64,000 nucleotides of DNA. Source: Clostridia bacterium. Its GTDB lineage: Bacteria > Bacillota > Clostridia > TANB77 > CAG-508. Under the pieces are notes generated by a model, which worked only from the letters and a program-made list of their open reading frames with translations, had not been told where the DNA came from and did no database searches. This document shows positions 9,967 to 29,905 of the stretch, piece after piece. The stretch's first letter is position 1; each line of letters opens with the position of its first letter. The stretch spans positions 1,501-65,500 of the forward strand of contig JAGAED010000003.1 of assembly GCA_017613275.1 (NCBI GenBank), given 5' to 3'. Both the position numbers and the translations under genes were made by a program.

Positions 9967-10035
9967 GGCGGAATAAGAAAACATTCCACTGGAATGTTTT
10001 CCCGCCGTGGCTCGCCGATTCCACTTCGAGGCACC
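9967..10035 (+). repeat. strong hairpin plus a degenerate T-arm and an exact 20-bp copy of the tRNA-Phe 3' end (att-like scar)
   Basis: CGATTCCACTTCGAGGCACC occurs at 9889-9908 and again at 10016-10035. The hairpin GGCGG..AAAACATTCCA-C-TGGAATGTTTT..CCGCC is at 9967-10006. Confidence 0.8.
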
Positions 10036-10185
10036 GGTTAAAGTAATATTTAGTACTGCTGTATGTATTACAAATATTACAAAAATATTACAAATTTATT
10101 TTTTGTAGTATATATCTTTTTTTTTGAAAAGAAGTATAGTAAAATAATATTGGAATTTTTATAATATTATAAGAGAGGTGAGATT

Positions 10186-10512
10186 ATGTATAATAGTAAT
10201 TTGCCCGAAGTGAAAAGAGAAGGTATTTTTATAAAAATAAAAAATTGGTTTAGGAGAATTTTTAAAGAAAGTAAAAGTAAGGAAACAACAGATATTGATA
10301 TTGATAAATATGAGCAAGAAATAAGAAATGAATTTAAAAATAATATACAGGTTAAAGATGAGAATGCAGTAATTCTTATGAGAAAATTTGAAGCAAATAA
10401 AATAAATATATCAGATTTAACAGATATCGAATTAGACAAGTTAATAGCTTTATATAAAGAAAAAATATCCGAAAAAAAGGAAAGATTAAAGCTTACAAAG
10501 GTAAATTTGTAA
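10186..10512 (+). CDS. hypothetical coiled-coil protein
   Basis: 108-aa ORF with a GAGAGGTGAG RBS. Confidence 0.55.
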   Translation: MYNSNLPEVKREGIFIKIKNWFRRIFKESKSKETTDIDIDKYEQEIRNEFKNNIQVKDENAVILMRKFEANKINISDLTDIELDKLIALYKEKISEKKERLKLTKVNL

Positions 10513-10528
10513 GAAATGGAGGATTATA

Positions 10529-12679
10529 ATGGAAAATTATAAACAAAATTATAATAGATATAAAAATACTATTGATTTTTTAAACTATTTATATAAAAAA
10601 AGGGTAACGTATAGGATATATAATATAAATGATTACATACCTCAAGAATTGTCAAATGATGAAACTTTTTATAAAGGTATAGCTGAAGATAATCCACTTT
10701 TATTTAAGGATTTGAGTAGTGATTGGTTAAGAAATCCGAATAATTTCAAAAAAATAATTGAGGCTAATCCATATGTATACCATTATTGTTCTTATGTTTC
10801 TAAGGATTTTTGGAAAGATTCTGAAATTAGTGATGAGTTTAAAAGAATAACTGGTGATTATAATATTATGATGGAAAAAGTTAAAAATTATGGGCGTTGT
10901 TTACAAGATGTTTCGTATGAATTTATGATGAAAAATAATTGCAAAATGCTTTTAGAAGCAGTAAAAAATGATTATAGAGTTTTTATGGATTTTGCCCCAA
11001 AAGAATTACAAGCTCTTTTGACTAGGAATAAAGAGTTTATACTAGATTCTTTTTTAAACTGTTATTCTGACTTGTTTCAAGTTAAAATGTATGCAGTAAT
11101 GCTAAATAATCTTTCAGATGAATTTAAAAATGATAATGAAGTTATTAAAAAAGCTGTAAGTGAGTGTGGATTAACTTTGAAATATTTACAAGAAGATAAT
11201 AAAAATAATGAAGATTATGTAAAAATAGCGGTAACGCAAAACGGATTAGCGCTAAGATATGCTTCAGAAGAACTAAAAAATAATCCGGAAATAGTTAAAA
11301 GTGCAGTAAGCCAAAATGGATTAGCACTAAGATATGCTTCAGAAGAACTAAAAAATAATCCAGGAATAGTTAAAAGTGCAGTAAGTCAAAATGGATTAGC
11401 ATTAAAATATGCATCAGAAGAATTAAAAAATAATAAAGAAAGTGCTCAATTGGCTGTAGATCAAAATAAATTGGCATTAAAAAGTGCAACTAAAGAGTTA
11501 AGAAATAATTATCAAATAAATGTTCCAATTGAAGCATTAGATTTCTCTTTAAAAGTTTTTTGGGAACTAAAGAAAAATAAAATAAATGATTTATTACAAC
11601 TAATAGAATTTCGAAATGATGAAAAGTTTGGTAAAATGACTAAAAAAAGCCAAAAAGAAATCTTAGAAATACTTGAAAGGTATAAAAATAAAACAGAAAG
11701 CGAAGAAGAATATAAGGATATTACTGATGAAATTGAAGATGAAATAAGTGATGACAGTTCAATAAAAGAAGGTATACGCTTAATTGCAAAGGAATTGGTT
11801 AAACATAATGACAATTATGGTGTAGAATATTGGGATTTGCCTGAAAATTTGAGAGAGGATACAGAGGTTACAACGGAAGCAATAAAATATAATCCGGGTA
11901 TTTTTAGAAGTATACCAGAAGATAGAGAGGATTATTATGATATAGTTTTAGAATCGGTAAAATCAGGGCCATATTTAATGAATCATATACCAGAAGATAT
12001 GCAAAAATCTATTGGAAATGATTATGATACTATGATGACAATGGTAAAAAAATCAGAAATTGCATTACATCATGCATCAGAAGATTTAAAAAACGATAGA
12101 GAATTGGTAATTGAAGCAATTAAAAACTATGGCGGTGCAATAAGATATGCATCAGAAGAACTAAGAAACGACCCAGAAATTGTACTAATGGCTTTAAGAC
12201 AAAATGGAAATGCTTTAGAAGATATACCGGAATATTTTTTAAATAATAAAGAAATTGTAATAGAAGCTGCAAAAAATGGTTTGTCTTTTGAGAAGGTGGA
12301 TTCTTTTCTCAAAAAGAAATTAAAAGAACGTGGATATTTAGATGATCCTGATTTTAAGCTTGAAATGGCTAAAAATGGATATAATGAACCTAGGATATTT
12401 ATAGAGGATCCTTTAATAATTGCTGATGCAAAAAAAATATATCAAAGGAGACGAATAGAAGATTATAAAGAGGTTTTATTAACTACAGAAGAGGAACGTA
12501 ATGATTTTTATCATGGAAAATATAAAGAAATTATTAATAAAAAAATTGCAATTGATAACAGAAGATATAAGGAAGAAACTTTACTAAAATTACAACAAGA
12601 AAATTTTAAATTAAATGAAAAAATTTCAGAAATGAAAAATATACTAGATAACTCAAAAGAAACAGATAATCAAAAATAA
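10529..12679 (+). CDS. DUF4116 repeat-containing protein
   Basis: 716 aa with multiple NGLALRYASEELKNNPEIVKSAVSQ-type 25-aa repeats in two blocks. Confidence 0.75.
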   Translation: MENYKQNYNRYKNTIDFLNYLYKKRVTYRIYNINDYIPQELSNDETFYKGIAEDNPLLFKDLSSDWLRNPNNFKKIIEANPYVYHYCSYVSKDFWKDSEISDEFKRITGDYNIMMEKVKNYGRCLQDVSYEFMMKNNCKMLLEAVKNDYRVFMDFAPKELQALLTRNKEFILDSFLNCYSDLFQVKMYAVMLNNLSDEFKNDNEVIKKAVSECGLTLKYLQEDNKNNEDYVKIAVTQNGLALRYASEELKNNPEIVKSAVSQNGLALRYASEELKNNPGIVKSAVSQNGLALKYASEELKNNKESAQLAVDQNKLALKSATKELRNNYQINVPIEALDFSLKVFWELKKNKINDLLQLIEFRNDEKFGKMTKKSQKEILEILERYKNKTESEEEYKDITDEIEDEISDDSSIKEGIRLIAKELVKHNDNYGVEYWDLPENLREDTEVTTEAIKYNPGIFRSIPEDREDYYDIVLESVKSGPYLMNHIPEDMQKSIGNDYDTMMTMVKKSEIALHHASEDLKNDRELVIEAIKNYGGAIRYASEELRNDPEIVLMALRQNGNALEDIPEYFLNNKEIVIEAAKNGLSFEKVDSFLKKKLKERGYLDDPDFKLEMAKNGYNEPRIFIEDPLIIADAKKIYQRRRIEDYKEVLLTTEEERNDFYHGKYKEIINKKIAIDNRRYKEETLLKLQQENFKLNEKISEMKNILDNSKETDNQK
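11165..11464 (+). repeat. 75-bp tandem coding repeats (DUF4116 units)
   Basis: Units at 11240-11314, 11315-11389 and 11390-11464 are nearly identical at the DNA level. Degenerate units flank them. Confidence 0.9.
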
Positions 12680-12833
12680 ATTATAGTAAAATAGCCATAT
12701 AATTTGGTTCTTTTACCTTTATAGATTAAAAAATTTCACCAAACCTGTAACCAAAAAAAATCCCCCCACATATTATATACCATACAAAGGAACAAAAAAA
12801 CTTAAGGAGTTCTTTTGAAAGGGGGTCTAGACT

Positions 12834-12950
12834 ATGCCAGAAAACAGAGGATGCGGAGGTTTCGGATTTGGTGATGACAACTGCTGCTGGATAATAATCC
12901 TTATATTATTAATATGCTGCTGCTGTGGAAATAACAGAGGTTGTTGCTAA
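12834..12950 (+). CDS. 38-aa Cys-rich small membrane protein (not in the ORF track)
   Basis: AAGGGGG RBS, then ATG. Sequence MPENRGCGGFGFGDDNCCWIIILILLICCCCGNNRGCC. A terminator hairpin follows directly. Confidence 0.6.
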   Translation: MPENRGCGGFGFGDDNCCWIIILILLICCCCGNNRGCC

Positions 12951-12965
12951 TCCATAAAATTATAA

Positions 12966-12995
12966 AAATTCCTGACAATTACGTCAGGAATTTTT
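12966..12995. terminator. bidirectional terminator between convergent genes
   Basis: AAATTCCTGAC/GTCAGGAATTT stem. Confidence 0.75.
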
Positions 12996-13000
12996 AACGT

Positions 13001-13798
13001 TTATTTATATCTTATAAAATCATAATTACAATTTTGAGTAATTGTTAAAGCACCATCATATAATGATTTTTCACCATTTTCAAGAGGTGGTTCTATAAAA
13101 ACAGTACATTTAAATTCTTGGTCCAAATTATTTGTGATAATTATATCAAATGAAATTTTACAATTTAAAGAACTTAGTAAAACACCACATTTTTTAAGTA
13201 AAGAACCATCATAGGTTATTGGAGAACCAGTATCTGTAATTGTATAATCTGTTTTTATATTTTCGTTTATATAGCTTAAAACTATTGGATTTGCACAATT
13301 ATTGTATAAAGTTGGAGTGCTTAAATCTTCTGTATCATTTGAACTAATGCTAAAATTTAAATCATTTTCAAAAATATTTTCTTCCAAAATTGTATTTTTT
13401 GCAAAAGAATTTATATTTTTGTAAGCTAATTTTTGAGTTCCAATTGATGGCTTTTCAGTATATTGTAGATTTTCTAATCTTACACTTTTTAATGTATTTT
13501 CCATATTATTTTCATCATTAGTATTGTTCAAAAATATAGCAATATCAGTATATTGGTATAGATTTTCTATTGTGAAATTACTTGCTGTAGCATTTTTATT
13601 TTGGGCATTACAATTACTAAACAATACAATTTTATTTATGGAAAAAATTGTATTTTCATTTTTTGATGCAAAATCCAGATAATCTTTTTCACAATTTGAT
13701 TTATTTTTAAACATTCCGAAAACGCTTGTACATAGCACTACAAATACAATAACTAATATTATAAAAATTGAAATAAAAATAATTTTCTTCTTATCCAA
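13001..13798 (-). CDS. hypothetical membrane-anchored or secreted protein
   Basis: 265 aa with an N-terminal TM helix (IIFISIFIILVIVFVVL). Confidence 0.6.
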   Translation of the reverse strand: MDKKKIIFISIFIILVIVFVVLCTSVFGMFKNKSNCEKDYLDFASKNENTIFSINKIVLFSNCNAQNKNATASNFTIENLYQYTDIAIFLNNTNDENNMENTLKSVRLENLQYTEKPSIGTQKLAYKNINSFAKNTILEENIFENDLNFSISSNDTEDLSTPTLYNNCANPIVLSYINENIKTDYTITDTGSPITYDGSLLKKCGVLLSSLNCKISFDIIITNNLDQEFKCTVFIEPPLENGEKSLYDGALTITQNCNYDFIRYK

Positions 13799-14072
13799 AA
13801 CTTGTCCTCCTTTGTACGCTATTACTATATTATAAATTTAAATTTTTGGCAATATAAATTTTATAAAATGCTAAATATTATTATTTTCAAGCAACAATCG
13901 TGGGGACCGACAAATTACAGTATGTCAAAATATTTGAAAAATATTTTTTTACATACTGTTATGCAGTTGGGAGTTGCAGAAAATAATAATATTTAGCTAT
14001 AATAATAATTTTTCCAAAAATTTAAATTGACAATTTTCTACATTTTGTTTACAATTATTTTAGGTGATAAAT

Positions 14073-15266
14073 ATGAAAACAAAAGAGAAAATATACATAT
14101 TATTTTTGTTGATAATTTTAGCCATATCATTTTTCATATATATTATATTTACAAAAAATAACACTTATGCAAAAGAGTCAAATTCTGGTGTTCAAAATAC
14201 CAGAATTAGCAATGCAAAACAAGTAGACATATATGAAATAATAAAGAAAAATACTGTAGAAAAGCAAGAAGAAACAATAGAAACAAGAGAAGAACCTTTG
14301 GAATTCATTACCAAATACAAAACCAACAACGAGCTTCCAAAAGGCACAATGCAGGTGATTCAAGAAGGTAGAGAAGGTATTCAACAAATATCAATAAAAA
14401 GAATTTACCAAAATGGTAGTTTAATAGATGAGCAACAAATGGGAACAAAAGTTATAAAAGCTTCTGTTGAAAAAATAGTAGAAATTGGTGGAGCAAAATA
14501 CACAAGCTATTATAAAGTTAAAAAAGGCGACAATGTTTACACAACAGCAGATAGGGTTGAGGTAATGTTGGAACCAGATGGAAATAGCCAAAAACTAACT
14601 ACCATAGGGAAAAACAATGAACTAAAAATATTAGATTTAAATGACAATTGGTACAAAGTATCTGGAACAGCAGGAACTGGCTGGGTAAAGAAAGAAAGTA
14701 CTACTTATATAAATCCAAATGAAGGATTTGATGAAAGTAAATATGGGGCAAAATCAAAGGAACAATTGTTAAAAGAACTAAGCTTTGAAATGAAATTAAA
14801 TAAGCCTAGTGGATTAACTCTTGATCAGTTCAAAAAGATACTTTCAGACCCAAAAGATGTTAACAAAATATTTGAACAAAATGCAGAATATTTTTATTAC
14901 ATAGAAAAACAATATAATATAAATGGAGTGTTTGTAGCTGCAATAGGAATTCATGAAAGTGCATGGGGAACTTCTAAAATTGCAAGAGATAAGAAAAACC
15001 TATTTGGCTACGGAGCATACGATTCTAGCCCTTATAAATCTGCATATTCATTTGAAAACTATTCAGAAAGCATAGATTTAATAGCAAGGGTATTAACAAA
15101 ATATTATTTAAACCCAGCTGGAACATCAATTTACAATTCTGAAAAAGCAACTGGAAGTTATTATAATGGTTCAACATTATCAGGCGTAAATAAAAGATAT
15201 GCAACAGATAAAAACTGGGCAAACGGCGTGTTTAGTCATATGAAATATTTATACAATAAATTATAG
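14073..15266 (+). CDS. cell-wall hydrolase: TM + G5 + SH3b + GH73 N-acetylglucosaminidase
   Basis: G5-like VIQEGREGIQQISIKRIYQNG..EIGG, SH3b-like NWYKVSGTAGTGWVKK, and GH73-like GIHESAWGTSKIARDKKNLFGYGAYD. Confidence 0.75.
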   Translation: MKTKEKIYILFLLIILAISFFIYIIFTKNNTYAKESNSGVQNTRISNAKQVDIYEIIKKNTVEKQEETIETREEPLEFITKYKTNNELPKGTMQVIQEGREGIQQISIKRIYQNGSLIDEQQMGTKVIKASVEKIVEIGGAKYTSYYKVKKGDNVYTTADRVEVMLEPDGNSQKLTTIGKNNELKILDLNDNWYKVSGTAGTGWVKKESTTYINPNEGFDESKYGAKSKEQLLKELSFEMKLNKPSGLTLDQFKKILSDPKDVNKIFEQNAEYFYYIEKQYNINGVFVAAIGIHESAWGTSKIARDKKNLFGYGAYDSSPYKSAYSFENYSESIDLIARVLTKYYLNPAGTSIYNSEKATGSYYNGSTLSGVNKRYATDKNWANGVFSHMKYLYNKL

Positions 15267-15843: not shown

Positions 15844-17544
15844 ATGAAAGTTTTATTTGCTGTAAGTAATGAGGAGATATCAGAAACAATTGTTAAAAGA
15901 TATCAAAAACAATATAAGGAGATAATATCATACAAAAATGTCTATTACTTTAATGCAATATTAAAAGAAATACAAAAGGACAAAACTTATGATAGAATAG
16001 TAATAAGTGAAGAGTTAGAGGCATTTACAAATACACAGTATGAACAAATAGATAGATTTATATTTGATAAATTAGATAGCATAAGTGATGAAGCAGCTAA
16101 CACCAGAGGAGATAATACACCTATTATCTTAATATGTTCAGATAGAAGAACAAAAGGCGAAGAAATGCTTGTTAAATTATTTGGAATTGGTATTTATGAT
16201 GCTTTAATTGGAAATGATAGAGGAGTAGATGAGGTTTGTAATTTAATTCATAAATCTCGTTCTAAAAAAGAAGCAAAATTATATTATAAAATTGAAGCGG
16301 ACGAAGTAAAATATCAATCTGAAAATGAAAATGATGTTAGTGAGCAAGAGATTCAAAATATTTTGGCACATTATAAAAGACTTGGAAAGAATGAAGATAA
16401 ATATGTTACAAGTTTTGATAATATAGTTGCTCAGTACAATGATGCCCAATTAAGAATTATAAGCAAATTCTTACCATTAAATGTAAGAGCTGTTTTGGAA
16501 GAAAAATCACCAAAATATCAACAAATAATGTCATTTAACAATGCGGTTACAGATAGCATTAGAAAGCCTAAAAAGCCACAAAGTTTAGGACCAAGTGGTA
16601 AATTATTAAGACCAAAAAATAAAGCTGTAATGCCAACAGAACCAATTGTTATACCAAATGCAGTTGATACTGAAAATGTTAAAAAATTAACAAGAAATCG
16701 TGCGAATAAAGTTGATGACGGAATTCAAGGAATAGAAGAAACATTAAGCGGTTTTGACAATAATTCAAATAATGATTTTAATGCTTTTGAACAAGACGAT
16801 AGCAAGCAAGTTCAAAATAGTTATAATCCATTTGAATCAAATAATAATCAAACAGCTTATGATCCTTTTGCACAAGATAATAATCAAAATCAAGACGCTT
16901 TTGATCCTTTTGCACAAAGCAATACACAATTTGAAAACTTTACAAGCTTTAATAGCGATATAACAAATAGTTTCCAAAATGAAATTCCAGAAGAGCCAAA
17001 AAGAAGAGGAAGAAAGCCAAAAAATGTTGAAGAAGAAGAAGAACCAGTTCAACCTCAAGCACCAAAAAGAAGAGGTAGACCAAGAAAAAATCCAGTGGTT
17101 GAGCCACAAGATGATGGTATTCTTCCAGGATTTGAAGCATCATATTCAAACCATCAAGAAGAAGAAAATGATGATGATACAATATTACCGGGATTTGAAG
17201 AAATAGATGATAATGTATTACCAGGATTCGAAGAAAACAATAGTAATGATAATATATTACCAGGTGTTGAAGAAGATAACAGTGAAGATAATGCATTACC
17301 AGGATTCGAAGATTATAATATAAATAATAGTGAACCACAAAGCTTTGATGACAACGAACAATTCAATAATAATCAGTTTGATAATTACCAATTTGAAAAC
17401 AATCCATTTGAAAATAATCAGTTTGATAACAATCAATTTGAAAACAATCCATTTGAAAATAATCAGTTTGATAACAATCAATTCGGAAATAATCAATTTG
17501 GAAACGCTCAATTTAGTAGTAATCAATTTGATAATAGCCAATAA
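15844..17544 (+). CDS. pseudo-receiver domain protein with AT-hooks, LPGFE repeats and NNQF pentapeptide repeats; ends at an in-frame TAA inside the repeat array
   Basis: N-terminal CheY-like alternation without the acidic pocket. KRRGRKPK and KRRGRPRK motifs. Five copies of (I/V/A)LPG(F/V)E(E/D/A). About 11 NNQF(D/E/G) units before the stop. Confidence 0.6.
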   Translation: MKVLFAVSNEEISETIVKRYQKQYKEIISYKNVYYFNAILKEIQKDKTYDRIVISEELEAFTNTQYEQIDRFIFDKLDSISDEAANTRGDNTPIILICSDRRTKGEEMLVKLFGIGIYDALIGNDRGVDEVCNLIHKSRSKKEAKLYYKIEADEVKYQSENENDVSEQEIQNILAHYKRLGKNEDKYVTSFDNIVAQYNDAQLRIISKFLPLNVRAVLEEKSPKYQQIMSFNNAVTDSIRKPKKPQSLGPSGKLLRPKNKAVMPTEPIVIPNAVDTENVKKLTRNRANKVDDGIQGIEETLSGFDNNSNNDFNAFEQDDSKQVQNSYNPFESNNNQTAYDPFAQDNNQNQDAFDPFAQSNTQFENFTSFNSDITNSFQNEIPEEPKRRGRKPKNVEEEEEPVQPQAPKRRGRPRKNPVVEPQDDGILPGFEASYSNHQEEENDDDTILPGFEEIDDNVLPGFEENNSNDNILPGVEEDNSEDNALPGFEDYNINNSEPQSFDDNEQFNNNQFDNYQFENNPFENNQFDNNQFENNPFENNQFDNNQFGNNQFGNAQFSSNQFDNSQ

Positions 17545-17592
17545 GTAAATAATCAATTTAATAATAACCAATATAATAATTATAATCAAGTA
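17356..17592 (+). repeat. 15-bp (pentapeptide NNQF-x) tandem coding repeat spanning the TAA at 17542-17544
   Basis: AATAATCARTTTGAN units. Period and frame are preserved on both sides of the stop. Confidence 0.85.
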
Positions 17593-22395: not shown

Positions 22396-23421
22396 ATGAA
22401 AAAAGATAATAAAAAAAGAAAACCTAGAAAAGAACTATCAACAGGAGTTAGCTTAATACTAGTATTAATGTTTGTTGTAGTTTTCATTTATTTTGGTGTA
22501 TGTATTGGATTTATAATAAATTCATTTATAAATTACTCTATTGATTACATAGCAACACATGCACTTATAACTTTATTAGTTGGTGTTGTATACATGACTT
22601 TATTATTAATACTAATTCGTAATAGCGATAGCAAAAATGTTCAACCATTAAAATGGTATATTAATTGTATACTTATATCATTTACAACAAATCTAATTAT
22701 TTCTGCAATAACCGTATTCACATTAGGAACCCAAGAAGGTAATGATATAAACTTTTTGGTAGGTTTTTGTATTTTCCCTTTCATAGGAATTATAACTACA
22801 CCTAATATAATAAAATATGTAAAAAAAGATACAACAAAATGGAAAAAAATTTTTTATAAAAACGGAAATCTACACAAAATTAAAGCTTCAAAAGATTATT
22901 ATAGAGTACAAACACCAGTGGCATTTGAGAAAAAAATATTATCAGCGGTATATAAAGAACAATTAAAAACTGTGTTATTTGTAATAGCGTATATGGTCAT
23001 GACAATAGTAGCTAGCGTACATTATATGTCTAGAGAACATGATTTTTCAGGAGGAATAGTGAGTGACCTTATTGAATTAAGAGCTAAAAAAGAATTTGGT
23101 TTTGCATTCTTTTTAATGATTATCTTTTTAGCATTTGGTATACCTATAATTGCTTATTATGTTGCTAATGCTTGGAAAAAAATAAGAGTTGTAAAAAATC
23201 ATGAATATATTGCATATCATGCAATTATTCAAGGTGTTCATAATGGGAATATCGGTATTTATGCTGAAAAAAGGCATTATACATATAAATACTGCACTTG
23301 CGTTGGAATAAAAGAAAAAGATGTAAAACAAACTCCAGTGACTTTAATATTTTTACCAGATGATGTATTCTTATTTCCAGATGGTGAAGAGAGTTCAAAC
23401 GAAGTTATTAAAAGCCTTTAG
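22396..23421 (+). CDS. hypothetical multi-pass membrane protein
   Basis: 341 aa with a basic N-terminus, about 6 TM helices and a soluble C-terminal domain. Confidence 0.55.
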   Translation: MKKDNKKRKPRKELSTGVSLILVLMFVVVFIYFGVCIGFIINSFINYSIDYIATHALITLLVGVVYMTLLLILIRNSDSKNVQPLKWYINCILISFTTNLIISAITVFTLGTQEGNDINFLVGFCIFPFIGIITTPNIIKYVKKDTTKWKKIFYKNGNLHKIKASKDYYRVQTPVAFEKKILSAVYKEQLKTVLFVIAYMVMTIVASVHYMSREHDFSGGIVSDLIELRAKKEFGFAFFLMIIFLAFGIPIIAYYVANAWKKIRVVKNHEYIAYHAIIQGVHNGNIGIYAEKRHYTYKYCTCVGIKEKDVKQTPVTLIFLPDDVFLFPDGEESSNEVIKSL

Positions 23422-23470
23422 ATAAATATATAATAAATATTTTATTAGGAGAGGATAGGAAGTGTTAAAA

Positions 23471-23560
23471 ATGGAAGAAAAAAGAGCAAGTTTTAACTGT
23501 GAAAAATGGGCAAAAGCAAAACCCTCTATAAAGGTTGAAAAACAAATAGTTTTTGTATAA
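23471..23560 (+). CDS. 29-aa micro-ORF with the NCEKWAKAK motif
   Basis: MEEKRASFNCEKWAKAKPSIKVEKQIVFV. It is paralogous to the micro-ORF at 23999..24073. Confidence 0.4.
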   Translation: MEEKRASFNCEKWAKAKPSIKVEKQIVFV

Positions 23561-23598
23561 AACATCTTTCATGATTTGATTAAAAGGGGATAAATAAT

Positions 23599-24009
23599 AT
23601 GGAAAAAGTATTAGGATATGATTGTGATGGTAGAGAAATCTATGAATACAGAATTCTACGTGCAATTTTTTCAAATGATATAGATATAGAAGATTTAGAA
23701 GATGCAGACCCTAGAATGTATTGTGCTGTTGTAGCTAATGATGGAAAAGCTTATGCGATTAGCGTATTTGATTGGTGGAATAAAGCTTTGATTAGAAAAA
23801 GAGAAAATATAAAAGAAAATGAAGAAATACCGATAATTATAAAATCAATAGATGAAATGAAAAATTATGAACTAGCAATGTGTGATGGTGGTGAAAAAGA
23901 ATTTTATTATGATTTTGATCGTAATAAGCTTAAAACTCAATTAAACACAGCGCTAAATAAAGACAAAGTAATAAATAAAAATATAGGAGATGACTCATAT
24001 GAACGATAA
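23599..24009 (+). CDS. hypothetical protein
   Basis: 136-aa ORF with an AAAGGGG RBS. Confidence 0.55.
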   Translation: MEKVLGYDCDGREIYEYRILRAIFSNDIDIEDLEDADPRMYCAVVANDGKAYAISVFDWWNKALIRKRENIKENEEIPIIIKSIDEMKNYELAMCDGGEKEFYYDFDRNKLKTQLNTALNKDKVINKNIGDDSYER

Positions 24010-24073
24010 TAAAACTAATATCAACTGTGAAGAATGGGCAAATGCAAAACTTCCTAAAAGAGTTCAAAAATGA
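23999..24073 (+). CDS. 24-aa micro-ORF with the NCEEWANAK motif
   Basis: GGAG lies 9 nt upstream of the ATG. Sequence MNDNKTNINCEEWANAKLPKRVQK. It overlaps the stop of the 136-aa gene. Confidence 0.4.
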   Translation: MNDNKTNINCEEWANAKLPKRVQK

Positions 24074-24122
24074 ACACTTTTTAAAAGAAACAACTTTCGT
24101 AATTCAAGAAATGAGGAGAAAA

Positions 24123-25061
24123 ATGAGCGATTATACTGTTGAAGTAAATATAAAAGATTTAGAGGATGAAATCAAAAAAAATATAGACATAATCATACAT
24201 AATTTACTTAAAAGATTTATTGAAGAAAATAAAATAGAAACTTTATATAAAATAATTTTTACAGATAATTGGGATGAGGAAATTACGGATTTTCAAAAAA
24301 ATAATAATTTACCAGTTGAATATACAGACTCTCAATATGGTTCGGCAGCTGCTAAAACATTGCATATTAAAATAGGAGAAAATATTAAAAATGTAATTTT
24401 TTTTAGAAAAGAGACATTGTTATCTATAGTAAAACAAGAAGGATATGGTATTTTACTTTTATTTCACGAATTATCTCATGTATATTACTTTGAAACAATA
24501 GGAAATAGATTAGATGAATTAAAAAAATCTTATAAAAAGATAAATAATTTATTTGAAAATACTAAAGACTTTGGATTAAATATGTGGGAAGAGTATTTTG
24601 TTTCTAGATATTTATGTAATTATTTATTTGGAAATACTGATTGCTTTGTTGAAATACTAGTAGAACAATATAAAAAAATAGAAGATGATATAAAAAAAGA
24701 AATTGAGAAATATCGCTATAATGGTAACATTAATGAATTATTTGCTCTGGCAAAAGAGCAAACTACTCTTTTATCAACATATTCTGCATATTCTTGTGGG
24801 ATGGTTAAAGCACTTAACGATGAAAAGAATGAATTATATAAAAAAACATGTGACTATATATCTAATGAAACAAAATTATGGGAGATTTGGAACAAAATGT
24901 ATATAATTTACGATGAAATATATGATGATTTTCCACGATTAGAAAATGTTGATACTAAATTAAATGAATTAGTAAAACTTTATATTAGTATTTATAATAT
25001 ATTTGGTATTTATCCAGAACAATTAAAAGATGGACGATTATATGTATCAGTACCATTTTAA
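24123..25061 (+). CDS. hypothetical HExxH (putative zinc metalloprotease-like) protein
   Basis: The FHELSHVYY motif. A strong GAGGAG RBS precedes the ATG at 24123. The ORF track starts at GTG 24027, which has no RBS. Confidence 0.55.
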   Translation: MSDYTVEVNIKDLEDEIKKNIDIIIHNLLKRFIEENKIETLYKIIFTDNWDEEITDFQKNNNLPVEYTDSQYGSAAAKTLHIKIGENIKNVIFFRKETLLSIVKQEGYGILLLFHELSHVYYFETIGNRLDELKKSYKKINNLFENTKDFGLNMWEEYFVSRYLCNYLFGNTDCFVEILVEQYKKIEDDIKKEIEKYRYNGNINELFALAKEQTTLLSTYSAYSCGMVKALNDEKNELYKKTCDYISNETKLWEIWNKMYIIYDEIYDDFPRLENVDTKLNELVKLYISIYNIFGIYPEQLKDGRLYVSVPF

Positions 25062-26280
25062 TTTAAATGTATTGGAGGTGGTTTTAATATTAAAATTGAG
25101 AGTAGCTGCATATATAAGAATTTCAAAGAAAGAAAAAGAAGTAAATAGCATATCAAATCAAAAAGATTTAATAGATTATTACATTAAAGATAAAGAAGAT
25201 ATGAAGATATATAATTACTATGTAGATAATGGCTATAGTGGGACAAACTTTGATAGACCTGAGCTAAAAAGAATGTTAAAAGATATATCAAATAAAAAGG
25301 TTGATATAGTAATTGTTAAGGATTTATCAAGATTAGGAAGAAATTATATTGAAGTAGGAGAATTACTTGACTCGTTATTACCATTATATGATGTAAGGCT
25401 TATTTCAATTAATGATAATATAGATGGATTAAATGATGAAGAAGATAGCTACTTATTAAAAGCATTACTAAATATTTATAATGAAAACTATCCAAGAGAT
25501 ATATCTAATAAAGTAAAAACGGCATTAACTACTAAAAAAGTAAATGGTGAATTTGTAACTTCTTATGCACCATATGGATATAAAAAATCAAGATACGAAA
25601 AGAATAAAATAATTATTGATATAGAAGCGGCTAAAATTGTAAAGATGATATTTGATAATATAGAAAGAGGCTTAAGCAAAAAAGAAATAGTAGATATTTT
25701 AAATAAGAAGAAAATTAGAACTCCAATGGAACATATTAAAAACACTAATGAAGGCAAGAAGTGGGATATCAGTATGATTACTGGAATTATAAAAAATAAA
25801 GTATATACTGGAGACTTAATTCAACAAAAGCGAAAACGAATTAGTTTTAAAAATCATAGATTAATAAAGACAAAAGAAGACGAGTTAATAATTACAAAGA
25901 ATAATCATATGGAGATAATAAGCAAAGAGCAATTTGCAAGAGTGCAAGATATAATTAAACATTCAGTAAAAGTAAATTCAAATAATGAATATGATATTTT
26001 TTCAGGATATTTGAAATGTGCATAATGTGATAGTAATTTGACTATTAGAAAGAGCAAAGAATATACATATTATGCATGCTCATCACATGTAAGGAAAAGA
26101 GGATGCAATAACAAACATACTATAAGAAAAGATATTTTAGAAGAAAAAGTTATTACAGAAATAAATAATAGACAAGATACTAAAATAGATAAGTTGAATA
26201 GAAAGTATATTTTTGATTTAATAAATATGATATATTTAAATCAAGATGGCTCAATAAAAATCGAGTTTAAAAGGAAATAA
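25030..26280 (+). pseudogene. large serine recombinase interrupted by an in-frame TAA (26026-26028)
   Basis: Resolvase domain AAYIRISKKEK..SISNQ and VKDLSRLGRN. The recombinase domain and zinc ribbon are broken as GYLKCA*CDSNL..YYACSSHVRKRGC. Both ORFs are in the same frame. Confidence 0.8.
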
Positions 26281-28480: not shown

Positions 28481-28582
28481 AATATTACAATTATATTACA
28501 CTTTTATTGAAACCATTGTAAAATTTAATTATATTTGATAAACTAAAATAGTAAATAAACCAAAGAGAAAGAAGGTACAAAT

Positions 28583-29666
28583 ATGATAAAGAATGTAAAC
28601 AAAACACAAAACAAGCGGAATTACGCTAATTGCCCTTGTTATTACAATTATTGTTTTACTAATATTAGCAGGTATAACAATAAGTGCATTAACAGGAAGT
28701 GACTCTGCACCAGCAAAAGCTAATGAAGCAAAACAAGCAAATGATATTGGAGCAATACAAGATCAAATAGCATTGGTTGTGCAAAATGCACAAATGGAAG
28801 GATATGAGGCAGCATATGTTAACAATGATTCAACAATATCACAATCACAAGCAGCAATAACAGTTGGACAAAAAGTTATTGATGATACATTTGCGCAATA
28901 TGGAACTCCAACAGTATCAGGAAACCAAAAAACATTAGAAACAACAAGAGGAGATGTAACAATAAAACTTGAACAAGAAACAGGAAAAAATGCAAAAATC
29001 ACATTAACAACAAGAGATAAGGAAAAAGAAGGGACAATAAATATCAATGGAGGAACATTAAGTTGGGGAATATATACATCCTACACAATGGGACAAACAG
29101 TAACATTAGGAGGAGAAGAATTTTGGGTAATAGAGGATAGTGATGCAAATACAGCAACAGTTAAATTATTAGCAAAATTAAATGTAATAACAACAGAAGG
29201 AGATGCAGACAGATATAAACAAAATGCAAGTGCAAATAAATTAAGATTTGATGATTATAGTAACGTGTATTATGATGATACAACTAATCCAGTAACACAA
29301 GCAGAAATAAAAACACATGTAGATGCATATAAAACAGCAGTTGAAGGAAGATGGAGAACAGCAACAGGAGATAATACAAAAACGATACAAGAAGCAAGAC
29401 TTATGACAGGAACAAATTCAAGTGGAGAAGTTCAAGCAATACTGGGCTCAGCTTTAACAAATAAAAGAGACATAGTATATGGACCTGAAGGAGCTAAACT
29501 AAATTATTGGCTTGGTACTCCTAGTGAATTCGGCTATCACTACGAGTGGCTTGTGTTTGGTAACTACGGATTAGAGTACAACATGGACGTGACGTACGAC
29601 GGTACCGAATATAGCTGCGACGTGGGGCTTCGTCCAGTTTTAGTTGTCCTAAAGTCTAATATCTAA
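28583..29666 (+). pseudogene. prepilin-type N-terminal helix protein with a YWLxxP...GLRPVL C-terminal domain; frameshift near the 5' end
   Basis: The ATG frame gives MIKNVNKTQNKR. The long frame (open from 28599) gives SGITLIALVITIIVLLILAGITISAL. Removing C28616 would join them as ..NKGITLIALV. The C-terminus is anomalously GC-rich. Confidence 0.65.
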
Positions 29667-29743
29667 AAGTGGACTGCACGATGATAACATAATTGTATAA
29701 TAGCGCGGGCGAGGCCAGTGGATCGCCTGTGCGTGGCTTATAA

Positions 29744-29779
29744 CAAATAAAATCTCAGATTTTTCTGAGATTTTATTTG
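29744..29779 (+). terminator. rho-independent terminator
   Basis: Perfect 16-bp stem CAAATAAAATCTCAGA/TCTGAGATTTTATTTG with a TTTT loop. Confidence 0.75.
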
Positions 29780-29830
29780 TTTATTCTTGACTAAATTATC
29801 AAAACATGGTATAACTATATAGTATTAACT

Positions 29831-29905
29831 GGCCCCTTGGTCAAGCGGTTAAGACGCCACCCTCTCAAGGTGGAATCATGGGTTCGATTCCCGTAGGGGT
29901 CACCA
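29831..29905 (+). tRNA. tRNA-Glu (anticodon CTC)
   Basis: Starts GGCCCCTTGGTCAAGCGGTTAAGAC. Anticodon loop CTCTCAA, encoded CCA. Confidence 0.85.

Follow-up and report, generated by a model that had tools for sequence, protein, structure and literature searches.

Targets of diversity-generating retroelements (DGRs), that is, genes whose variable region (VR) is rewritten from a template repeat (TR) by means of a reverse transcriptase (RT), are the closest described counterparts of the element considered here. This element is the 3' segment (positions 29504–29637, forward strand) of a pilin-like gene from a Clostridia bacterium, located in a 64,000-nt stretch of contig JAGAED010000003.1 (assembly GCA_017613275.1), which was analysed as a whole and is referred to as the window. 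The segment is probably a VR written by a DGR, most likely orphaned and no longer diversifying. As a DGR-written VR it belongs to a kind of element known already; its pilin-type carrier is scarce among the described VR-holding domains, according to one survey (PMC11661182).

By domain class, the window gene is nearest to the DUF6273 targets (Faecalibacterium prophage, 'tentaclins'; PMC10743442, PMC11792537), in which the VR encodes the surface hairpin/loop region of a lectin-like domain. DUF6273 itself is described as a C-type-lectin-like DGR target domain with the VR forming a surface hairpin (PMC10743442). The window protein falls into this class by structure (Foldseek probability 1.00), and NNC codons, which arise from AAC-rich templates in the DUF6273 targets, are present in the window VR as well. 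Unlike the DUF6273 targets of the phage tail/Ig-chain type, the window domain is fused to the type IV pilin-like N-terminus of a cellular gene; the window protein also has no significant Pfam similarity to DUF6273, and no TR or RT lies alongside this copy.

Another counterpart is represented by the TvpA paralogs of Treponema denticola (PMC4891356, PMC5758913), where the VR-bearing gene is likewise far from any RT and several paralogous surface-protein targets occur per genome. However, each remote TvpA VR matches a known TR and differs from it by A-to-N changes only, whereas for the window VR no TR was found, the VR is static and the gene is frameshifted. With Mtd of Bordetella phage BPP-1 the window gene shares a VR at the 3' end of the open reading frame (ORF) within a lectin-fold domain, a conserved 3' boundary and a GC-rich inverted repeat downstream.

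The pilus-associated DGR targets of gut Bacteroides are type V pilus tip proteins. They have in common with the window protein a hypervariable lectin-like tip on a pilus, but the pilus is of type V in Bacteroides and type IV-like here, and both the phylum and the domain family are different. PDB entry 4EPS is mentioned in this Bacteroides pilus context in PMC10743442.

By analogy, the window VR would work, or would once have worked, like the classical targets (Mtd, TvpA, DUF6273 phage targets). As regards membership among current DGR targets, TR and RT are lacking locally, while the mutagenesis footprint, the fold and the homology to proven targets are present.

Composition of the 3' segment and its diversified relatives

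The segment and its 3' border are defined as follows.

29504–29637, forward strand: DGR-type VR; extent by homology to the VR/TR overlap of the relative L130 (further evidence: composition, and divergence from the relative L139)
29625–29637, forward strand: conserved VR 3' end, GGGCTTCGTCCAG; position equivalent to the initiation of mutagenic homing (IMH) site, where the TR homology of L130 stops

The first-pass annotation, made from the letters of the sequence, had reported a GC jump and NNC-dominated codons at the 3' end of the gene, and both are borne out. The GC content is 0.50 at 29520–29639 against 0.288 across the whole window, and the AT skew, about +0.3 to +0.6 outside this interval, is about 0 within it. 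Codon usage was scanned in 45 long ORFs (14,910 windows of 37 codons). In the stretch starting at 29511–29529, 15 of the 37 codons end in C (background mean 2.99, standard deviation 1.80), the highest count outside the pilin-like gene being 10 per 37 codons; A stands in the third position of 4 codons there, against a mean of 19.4. By composition, 29504–29637 is the most extreme coding stretch in the 64 kb.

For the amino acids N, Y, D, H, F, S and C, the ratio of NNT to NNC codons is 54:9 upstream in the gene and 4:13 in the segment (Fisher p = 2e-6). The A content is 0.23 in the segment and 0.46 in the remaining upstream part of the gene. The bias consists of A-avoidance together with NNC/NNT codons rather than of general GC enrichment, and the flanks of the VR, including the last 9 codons, have the AT-rich usage normal for the genome. 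The footprint of adenine mutagenesis, NNC/NNT codons in an A-poor scaffold, is present and occupies only 134 nt at the 3' end. The peptide given by the first-pass annotation is correct, as is its placement at the C-terminal end of a lectin-like binding domain. The proposed VR signature is also upheld, with an A-depleted scaffold, NNC/NNT codons and borders that match the VR/TR overlap of L130.

L130 is a homolog with 39% identity and the same scaffold, YWLG.P..EW.V.G...GLRPV, detected wholly or in part in more than 20 runs that belong to over ten studies. It was the one locus retrieved with the family profile from a metagenome contig collection; the same profile found no relatives in the genome and viral contig collections. 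When Logan contigs of four unrelated ruminant metagenomes were aligned to L130:2050-2420, contig X22:69490 proved to contain the exact L130 VR plus a second copy of 2179–2297, located about 210 nt past the stop codon and carrying 23 differences. The change types tabulated for this TR-bearing X22 run all lead to A (G>A at 13 places, T>A at 5, C>A at 3). The second copy and the VR are a textbook TR/VR pair, and L130's own contig ends in TTTTGGCTTGGC, which is the TR start. Further variants of the L130 VR, with 26–27 differences, are present in X21 and X23, and in many metagenomes this VR is undergoing active diversification.

The VR/TR overlap of L130 (2179–2297) spans TTTTGGCTTGG to CGTCCAG, and the TR homology stops at the G equivalent to the end of GGGCTTCGTCCAG. 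The TR/VR pair thus fixes the extent of the VR, which in the window corresponds to 29504–29637, almost exactly the GC-rich interval of the first-pass annotation. GGGCTTCGTCCAG is identical in L130, L008 and L139 and near-identical in L009, L010 and L131; lying inside the ORF, it would be the IMH equivalent by homology, with a putative IMH function.

Hypervariability confined to the VR is also clear in two groups of siblings, L009/L138 and L130/P0038. The VR DNA of L009 and L138 differs only at positions 1–2 of NNC/NNT codons, each third-position C and each scaffold codon being unchanged. The proteins P0005, P0006, P0010, P0011 and P0012 have nearly identical bodies outside the VR block and vary almost only within SP-x-E-xx-T-xx-EW-x-V-x-G-xx-S-x-F-xxxx-V-xxxxx-(Y/F)-GLRP. 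L009, with uvrB about 390 nt downstream and no TR between, is an example of the cassette-less copies of DGR-written VRs that occur in the pilin-like family.

For the 3' end of the window gene the nearest relative is L139, in which both flanks are 88–95% identical and the VR about 40%; the L139 VR is NNC-rich too and differs in length by 3 nt. In the non-diversified relatives L010 and L131, comparable loops are encoded by ordinary AAT/GAT/GGA/AAA codons with no rise in GC, so the NNC/GC signature is not a property of the domain itself. A purely compositional cue (local GC/NNC jump, A-depletion) correctly flags DGR VRs with no retroelement in view and could be used to find orphaned or remote targets missed by TR-based tools.

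A complete DGR cassette, carried by a conjugative element, is found in a paralogous pilin family (P0033; loci L133–L135). In L134, the VR (11486–11638) and the TR (11776–11928) are 87% identical, with all 20 mismatches at TR adenines, and the adjacent genes are a MutS_I-like ORF, bAvd, RVT_1 and a second MutS_I-like ORF. MutS-like (MSL) accessory genes mark a known minor DGR class (PMC5758913). The window gene resembles this family in its pilin-like N-terminal module, which is 55% identical over the N-terminal 44%, in having a lectin-type VR C-terminally and in the GC hairpin that follows its stop codon. It differs in the domain and VR (YWLGTP... in the window, WLASRCV... in L134) and in the arrangement, since all DGR parts lie within 2.2 kb in L134 and none lies in the window. 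The L134 RT has 2619 relatives at E ≤ 1e-10, the 120 best of which are 67–76% identical, the listed sources being mostly Logan and ENA assemblies; among the 2619, none could be attributed to the metagenome-assembled genome (MAG) of the window.

Around the L134 cassette (10001–14288; also in L133 and L135), the element carries ParB, a type IV secretion system (T4SS) coupling protein, TrbL, a T4SS pilin and RelB/YafQ. The two MutS_I-like ORFs flank bAvd and the RT, and the RT is on the opposite strand to the TR.

The pilin-like gene and the state of its VR

The gene carrying the VR comprises the following features.

28507–28535, forward strand: predicted promoter-like site TTGAAA-17-TATATT upstream of the gene (consensus scan, 10/12 matches)
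28583–28616, forward strand: original start and leader codons, out of frame with the body (ATG at 28583, ribosome-binding site AGAAGG 8 nt upstream)
28599–29666, forward strand: pilin-like ORF body, 355 codons, frame 0 (ORF list)
28617–28690, forward strand: prepilin-type N-terminal helix GITLIALVITIIVLLILAGITISAL (motif; Ala at +5 instead of the canonical Glu)
29076–29663, forward strand: DUF6273-like (C-type-lectin-like) C-terminal domain (AlphaFold2 model and Foldseek)

In the ORF body a hydrophobic N-terminal pilin helix is followed by a beta-rich central part and then by a C-terminal lectin-like domain; the stop codon is the TAA at 29664–29666. The AlphaFold2 model of the domain alone (C-terminal 196 residues) has a mean predicted local distance difference test score (pLDDT) of 92.1 and a predicted template modelling score (pTM) of 0.89. 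Its top Foldseek matches in BFVD are phage DUF6273 proteins (probability 1.00, template modelling (TM) score 0.46–0.59, E 7e-4 to 2e-3), DUF1566 matches being weaker. No significant match to this model was found in the PDB, and the assignment of a C-lectin fold therefore relies on what the literature says of DUF6273. The whole-protein model has a pLDDT of 74, and its Foldseek search against the PDB was uninformative. In Pfam searches the window protein has no match to PF19789 at E ≤ 0.1, and 2 of 14 family members match this family (E = 0.037). According to the model, the VR target would be the surface loop region of a DUF6273/C-type-lectin-like domain placed on a type IV pilin-like N-terminus.

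A prepilin-type leader and helix, KTSG followed by ITLIALVITIIVLLILAG, is present, with a PF07963 (N_methyl) score of 13.7 bits, below the cut-off of 21.2; the family profile matches the MshA and PilE1 pilins in the PDB (E = 1e-3 to 8e-3). The N-terminal module is common to 3337 homologs with many different C-terminal domains, and some of those with other C-termini carry PF19789 or PF07603. The neighbours of the window gene are mini-RNase III, tRNA-Glu and a P-type ATPase, with no pilus assembly genes nearby. In the relative L131, the homolog lies 5–10 kb from an A24 peptidase, two T2SSE genes and T2SSF; the pilus context is supported by this proximity of a non-diversified homolog to a prepilin peptidase, T2SSE ATPases and T2SSF. 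The protein is presumptively a pilus-borne adhesin of a rumen or gut Clostridia bacterium. The locus represents a target class that has been little described, namely type IV pilin-like proteins tipped with a DUF6273-like lectin domain, and this class is found widely in metagenomes of the ruminant gut.

A single ATG, at 28583, has a ribosome-binding site, but its frame is not that of the pilin body: translation from it, in frame 2, gives MIKNVNKTQNKRNYANC... and then meets a stop, and the body (KTSGITLIALV...) follows the TAA at 28596 in frame 0. A 1-nt insertion within 28598–28616 separates MIKNVNK... from ...KTSGITLIAL, causing a +1 frameshift near codon 7; most simply, it is an extra A in an A-run. 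The same frameshift allele is present in assemblies L001–L003 and in the Logan contigs of X1, X2 and X4, and assembly L003 has an additional 1-nt deletion at 28783. Judged by its reading frame, the gene looks inactivated as it stands, so that the practical consequence at the locus would be small.

The first-pass annotation had seen no RT or TR in the window and had concluded that the target would be remote or orphaned. Since blastn-short, RT-motif and Pfam searches found neither part in the window, this is the right frame. No TR was found in the window by repeat search, blastn-short or adenine-tolerant scan (A-rich noise only), nor in a further 43 kb from this genome (L004, L006) by the latter two methods, the genome sequence inspected amounting to about 107 kb. 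In a control, the adenine-tolerant scan did find the TR of L134, with 0 non-A mismatches. There is no YxDD-type RT ORF, RVT_1 match or Avd match among the window ORFs tested, and no RT within 10 kb of the paralogs P0043 and P0014. The TR in L130 and L134 is located 100–250 nt after the stop codon, and in the window this place is occupied by the GC hairpin, a terminator and tRNA-Glu. A TR pattern with fixed third-position C gave 0 matches in the viral contig collection and 0 in the genome contig collection, which does not include the window's MAG. In the viral contig collection, a fully degenerate TR pattern matched poly-A tracts only, and the L009-type VR/TR scaffold pattern gave 0 matches; blastn against a phage collection matched only the tRNA.

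Active diversification of the window VR, as an ongoing DGR would produce, finds no evidence: the gene is frameshifted, the VR has 0 differences in the Logan contigs of X1–X3 (4–14x depth), and the protein is identical in 3 assemblies. In the Logan contigs of X1–X4 no second, TR-like or variant contig was found at ≥80% identity.

The state of the window VR could be explained as follows. An AAC/AAT-rich TR would have been reverse-transcribed with adenine-specific errors, and the cDNA would have replaced the 3' end of the target gene. As a result, the positions in contact with the ligand would have NNC/NNT codons, separated by scaffold that is free of A and for this reason richer in GC. With the TR/accessory/RT cassette, directly downstream in relatives, absent from the window, the VR would be orphaned, and the GC/codon shift would be a relic of mutagenic retrohoming that once took place in an ancestor or in the donor of the 3' module. 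We infer both the writing of this particular VR by a DGR and the absence of a cognate TR from the rest of the genome. Cassette loss leaving a frozen VR has to be considered when the share of still active DGR targets in MAGs is estimated.

Several points weigh against an orphaned, DGR-written VR. Because no cognate TR was found anywhere, the A-to-N correspondence is not demonstrable for the window VR, and the DGR assignment would draw on composition and homology. The identity floor of 80% is close to the 78–81% expected for a window TR (the L130 control TR was found at 80.7%), so the negative result in X1–X4 is weak, or moderately strong at best. The three samples with identical VR come from one study and possibly represent one clone, and Logan contigs drop minority variants, which makes heterogeneity of the VR within a sample invisible. 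The inspected share of the genome is the 107 kb mentioned above. Finally, with its site in a short A-rich tract, the frameshift might represent reversible switching to OFF and not decay.

An unlikely alternative is that the VR is a live remote target, rewritten in trans by a DGR located elsewhere in the genome, on a conjugative element or in a prophage, with the frameshift being phase-OFF or irrelevant. For non-phage DGRs, targets at distances above 100 kb from the RT have been described (PMC5758913), the VR 3' end GGGCTTCGTCCAG is intact, and the L009-type siblings are hypervariable though L009 has no adjacent TR. The portion of the genome inspected would leave room for such a DGR, and the same genome has other pilin-like paralogs with lectin-type C-termini, including P0042 (WLASRCV-type, L134-VR-like). 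However, the TR type of L134 and P0042 is unrelated in sequence to the window VR, and the TRs of L130 and L134, the only two located in relatives, adjoin their targets. Moreover, no TR-like contig appeared in three metagenomes at 4–14x with the method that recovered the L130 TR, three samples agree in the VR without a single difference, and the gene carries a frameshift (two in one sample). An orphaned VR written in the past remains the preferred explanation.

Downstream hairpin, paralogs and neighbourhood

Downstream of the stop codon the window contains three further elements.

29703–29737, forward strand: unique GC-rich hairpin, 10-bp stem (29703–29712 with 29723–29732) and 10-nt loop (fold z-score -6.6 for 29660–29800)
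29742–29781, forward strand: predicted intrinsic terminator, 18-bp AT-rich stem followed by a T-rich tail
29831–29905, forward strand: tRNA-Glu (CTC), at the place of the TR in relatives (ARAGORN; Rfam tRNA, 63 bits)

Of the GC-rich element reported after the stop codon, the GGCGA-N10-TCGCC motif is confirmed (GGCGA at 29708–29712, TCGCC at 29723–29727), while the GC content is 77% (27/35) and not about 74%. The element starts 36 nt past the TAA. Its stem extends to 10 bp with two G-T/G-U pairs, and the RNA minimum free energy is -19.7 kcal/mol for the 51-nt stretch 29695–29745 containing the hairpin. The hairpin is the only one of its kind in the window, and Rfam has no family for it. Directly after the stem, TGGCTT (29734–29739) repeats the six bases at 29508–29513, the VR/TR-type start. 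In position the hairpin aligns with the post-stop hairpin of all family members, the non-diversified ones included, in which compensatory changes are seen between L130, L138 and L008; it is far GC-richer than these hairpins and has no T-tail. L139 has AT-rich sequence at this position and no such hairpin.

The first-pass annotation had taken the hairpin as a DGR-type hairpin following an IMH. This assignment cannot be made, as L139 is devoid of it and non-diversified members have post-stop hairpins. It is accordingly doubtful that 29703–29737 is a DGR cis element, either a target-recognition hairpin or cruciform, or the 5'-edge stump of a deleted TR cassette. Comparable structures do stand near the TR of relatives: L134 has a GC-rich hairpin (CAGCCCG-N11-CGGGCTG) 30 nt past the stop codon and 21 nt before the TR, and in L130 a small G/C hairpin with an 11-nt loop lies about 28 nt before the TR. 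The window hairpin resembles them in its 10-nt loop, it is unique in the window, TGGCTT comes right after it, and it is not needed for termination, because a separate canonical terminator follows. Against a cis element, the L139 VR is NNC-rich with AT-rich sequence in place of the hairpin, L010 and L131 have hairpins at the same position with no diversification, the stem as DNA needs two G-T pairs, the TGGCTT match of 6 nt is weak evidence, and the hairpin begins about 65 nt beyond the VR end. The hairpin could be an RNA 3' structure or a cassette remnant, and together with TGGCTT it might conceivably be the deletion scar of a former cassette.

In the BPP-1 work of Doulatov (2004) and Guo (2011), the hairpin is said to lie close to the IMH and to have a GC-rich stem and a short 4-nt loop. 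The window hairpin differs from it in its distance of about 65 nt from the VR, the 10-nt loop, the G-T pairs and the lack of conservation in L139.

L009 (2395–2849) and L138 (3200–3225) diverge exactly inside the post-stop hairpin. The stem of L138, AGGTGCC...GGCACCT, is perfect, and L009 has no 3' arm and runs into uvrB. From the alignment, this loss of an arm in L009 looks like a cassette deletion.

A more far-reaching scheme is quite improbable. According to it, rumen Clostridia would show DGR-diversified lectin tips on type IV pilin-like subunits, one or a few DGRs, some of them on conjugative elements, would serve dispersed pilin paralogs in trans, the window gene would be a live remote target that a reversible frameshift in the A-rich leader switches on and off, and the hairpin with TGGCTT would be a cis element for homing or a cassette boundary.

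Two further loci exhibit changes of the C-terminal part. In L006 (11560–11720; P0014, on the same 295-kb contig as the window), a pilin-like paralog is frameshifted just before its lectin-type C-terminal end, which is FGE-sulfatase-like (...SSRPTLYIK). In L136 (3700–3965; P0017), a pilin-like gene is frameshifted just before a lectin-type C-terminal end (WLASRCV...VLPVVSL). The two loci are syntenic (glycosyltransferase, RimP, pilin-like gene), and their pilins have a near-identical N-terminal half and different C-terminal domains, which is evidence of C-terminal module swapping.

The first-pass annotation had offered a recombined or horizontally acquired 3' end as a simpler alternative; module swapping is indeed seen in the family, but it is not exclusive of a DGR origin, and a recombined module already DGR-written in its donor is part of the preferred explanation, not its rival. 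A non-retroelement origin proper, meaning a recombined or horizontal module from a GC-richer donor or selection for Tyr/Asp/Asn/Gly-rich loops using C-ending codons, could appeal to this swapping on a conserved pilin N-terminus and to the lack of a TR or RT for the window copy, but is very improbable given a shift limited to 134 nt with the borders of the L130 VR/TR overlap, AT-rich flanks 88–95% identical to L139 around a core of about 40%, a bias of A-avoidance plus NNC/NNT with no general GC rise, and similar loops with ordinary AAT/GAT/GGA codons in L010 and L131.

From their sequences, several members of the pilin-like family appear to be inactivated. TGA recoding was considered for the truncated paralogs and rejected, as read-through meets further stops; the truncations are due to frameshifts instead. 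Compared with L136, L006 has gained an AAA_14 gene and a phage-type integrase, both upstream. In L130 (143–1006 and 1136–1260), a transposase-like ORF with no family assignment precedes the pilin-like gene, the leader and part of the N-terminal pilin helix of which are replaced by unrelated sequence.

P0042 (same MAG as the window, J5881_05185) has the L134-VR-like C-terminus YFWLASRCVSLYSSSCDFYVRCLEGGYV..., followed by the Arg-rich tail RRRYLDRRRRRVGGRRRRIRSSCS, the composition of which suggests a GC-rich region read out of frame. P0042 is a candidate second DGR target in the window genome.

Upstream of the pilin-like gene, a large serine recombinase (Resolvase, Recombinase; 25030–26025) is split from its zinc-ribbon domain (26038–26280) by a stop or frame break, and the ORFs before it (22396–25061) have no family match. 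Lying about 2.3 kb before the pilin-like gene, the recombinase region may be what is left of a mobile element that had integrated there. Intergenic palindromic elements of the TTTTTGGGACACTCCCCAAAAA type are present in at least 8 copies in the window (1013, 1054, 9098, 9129, 21278, 28457, 32869 and 49612), often inside longer inverted repeats, one of them immediately before the promoter of the pilin gene. By appearance they could be a shared terminator or a repeat similar to repetitive extragenic palindromic (REP) elements. Two other repetitive sequences of the window are unrelated to the VR: 15-nt tandem repeats encoding units of the (N/D)NQF(D/E) type at 17349–17588, at the end of ORF 15844–17544, and a 716-aa protein of eight DUF4116 repeats at 10529–12679.

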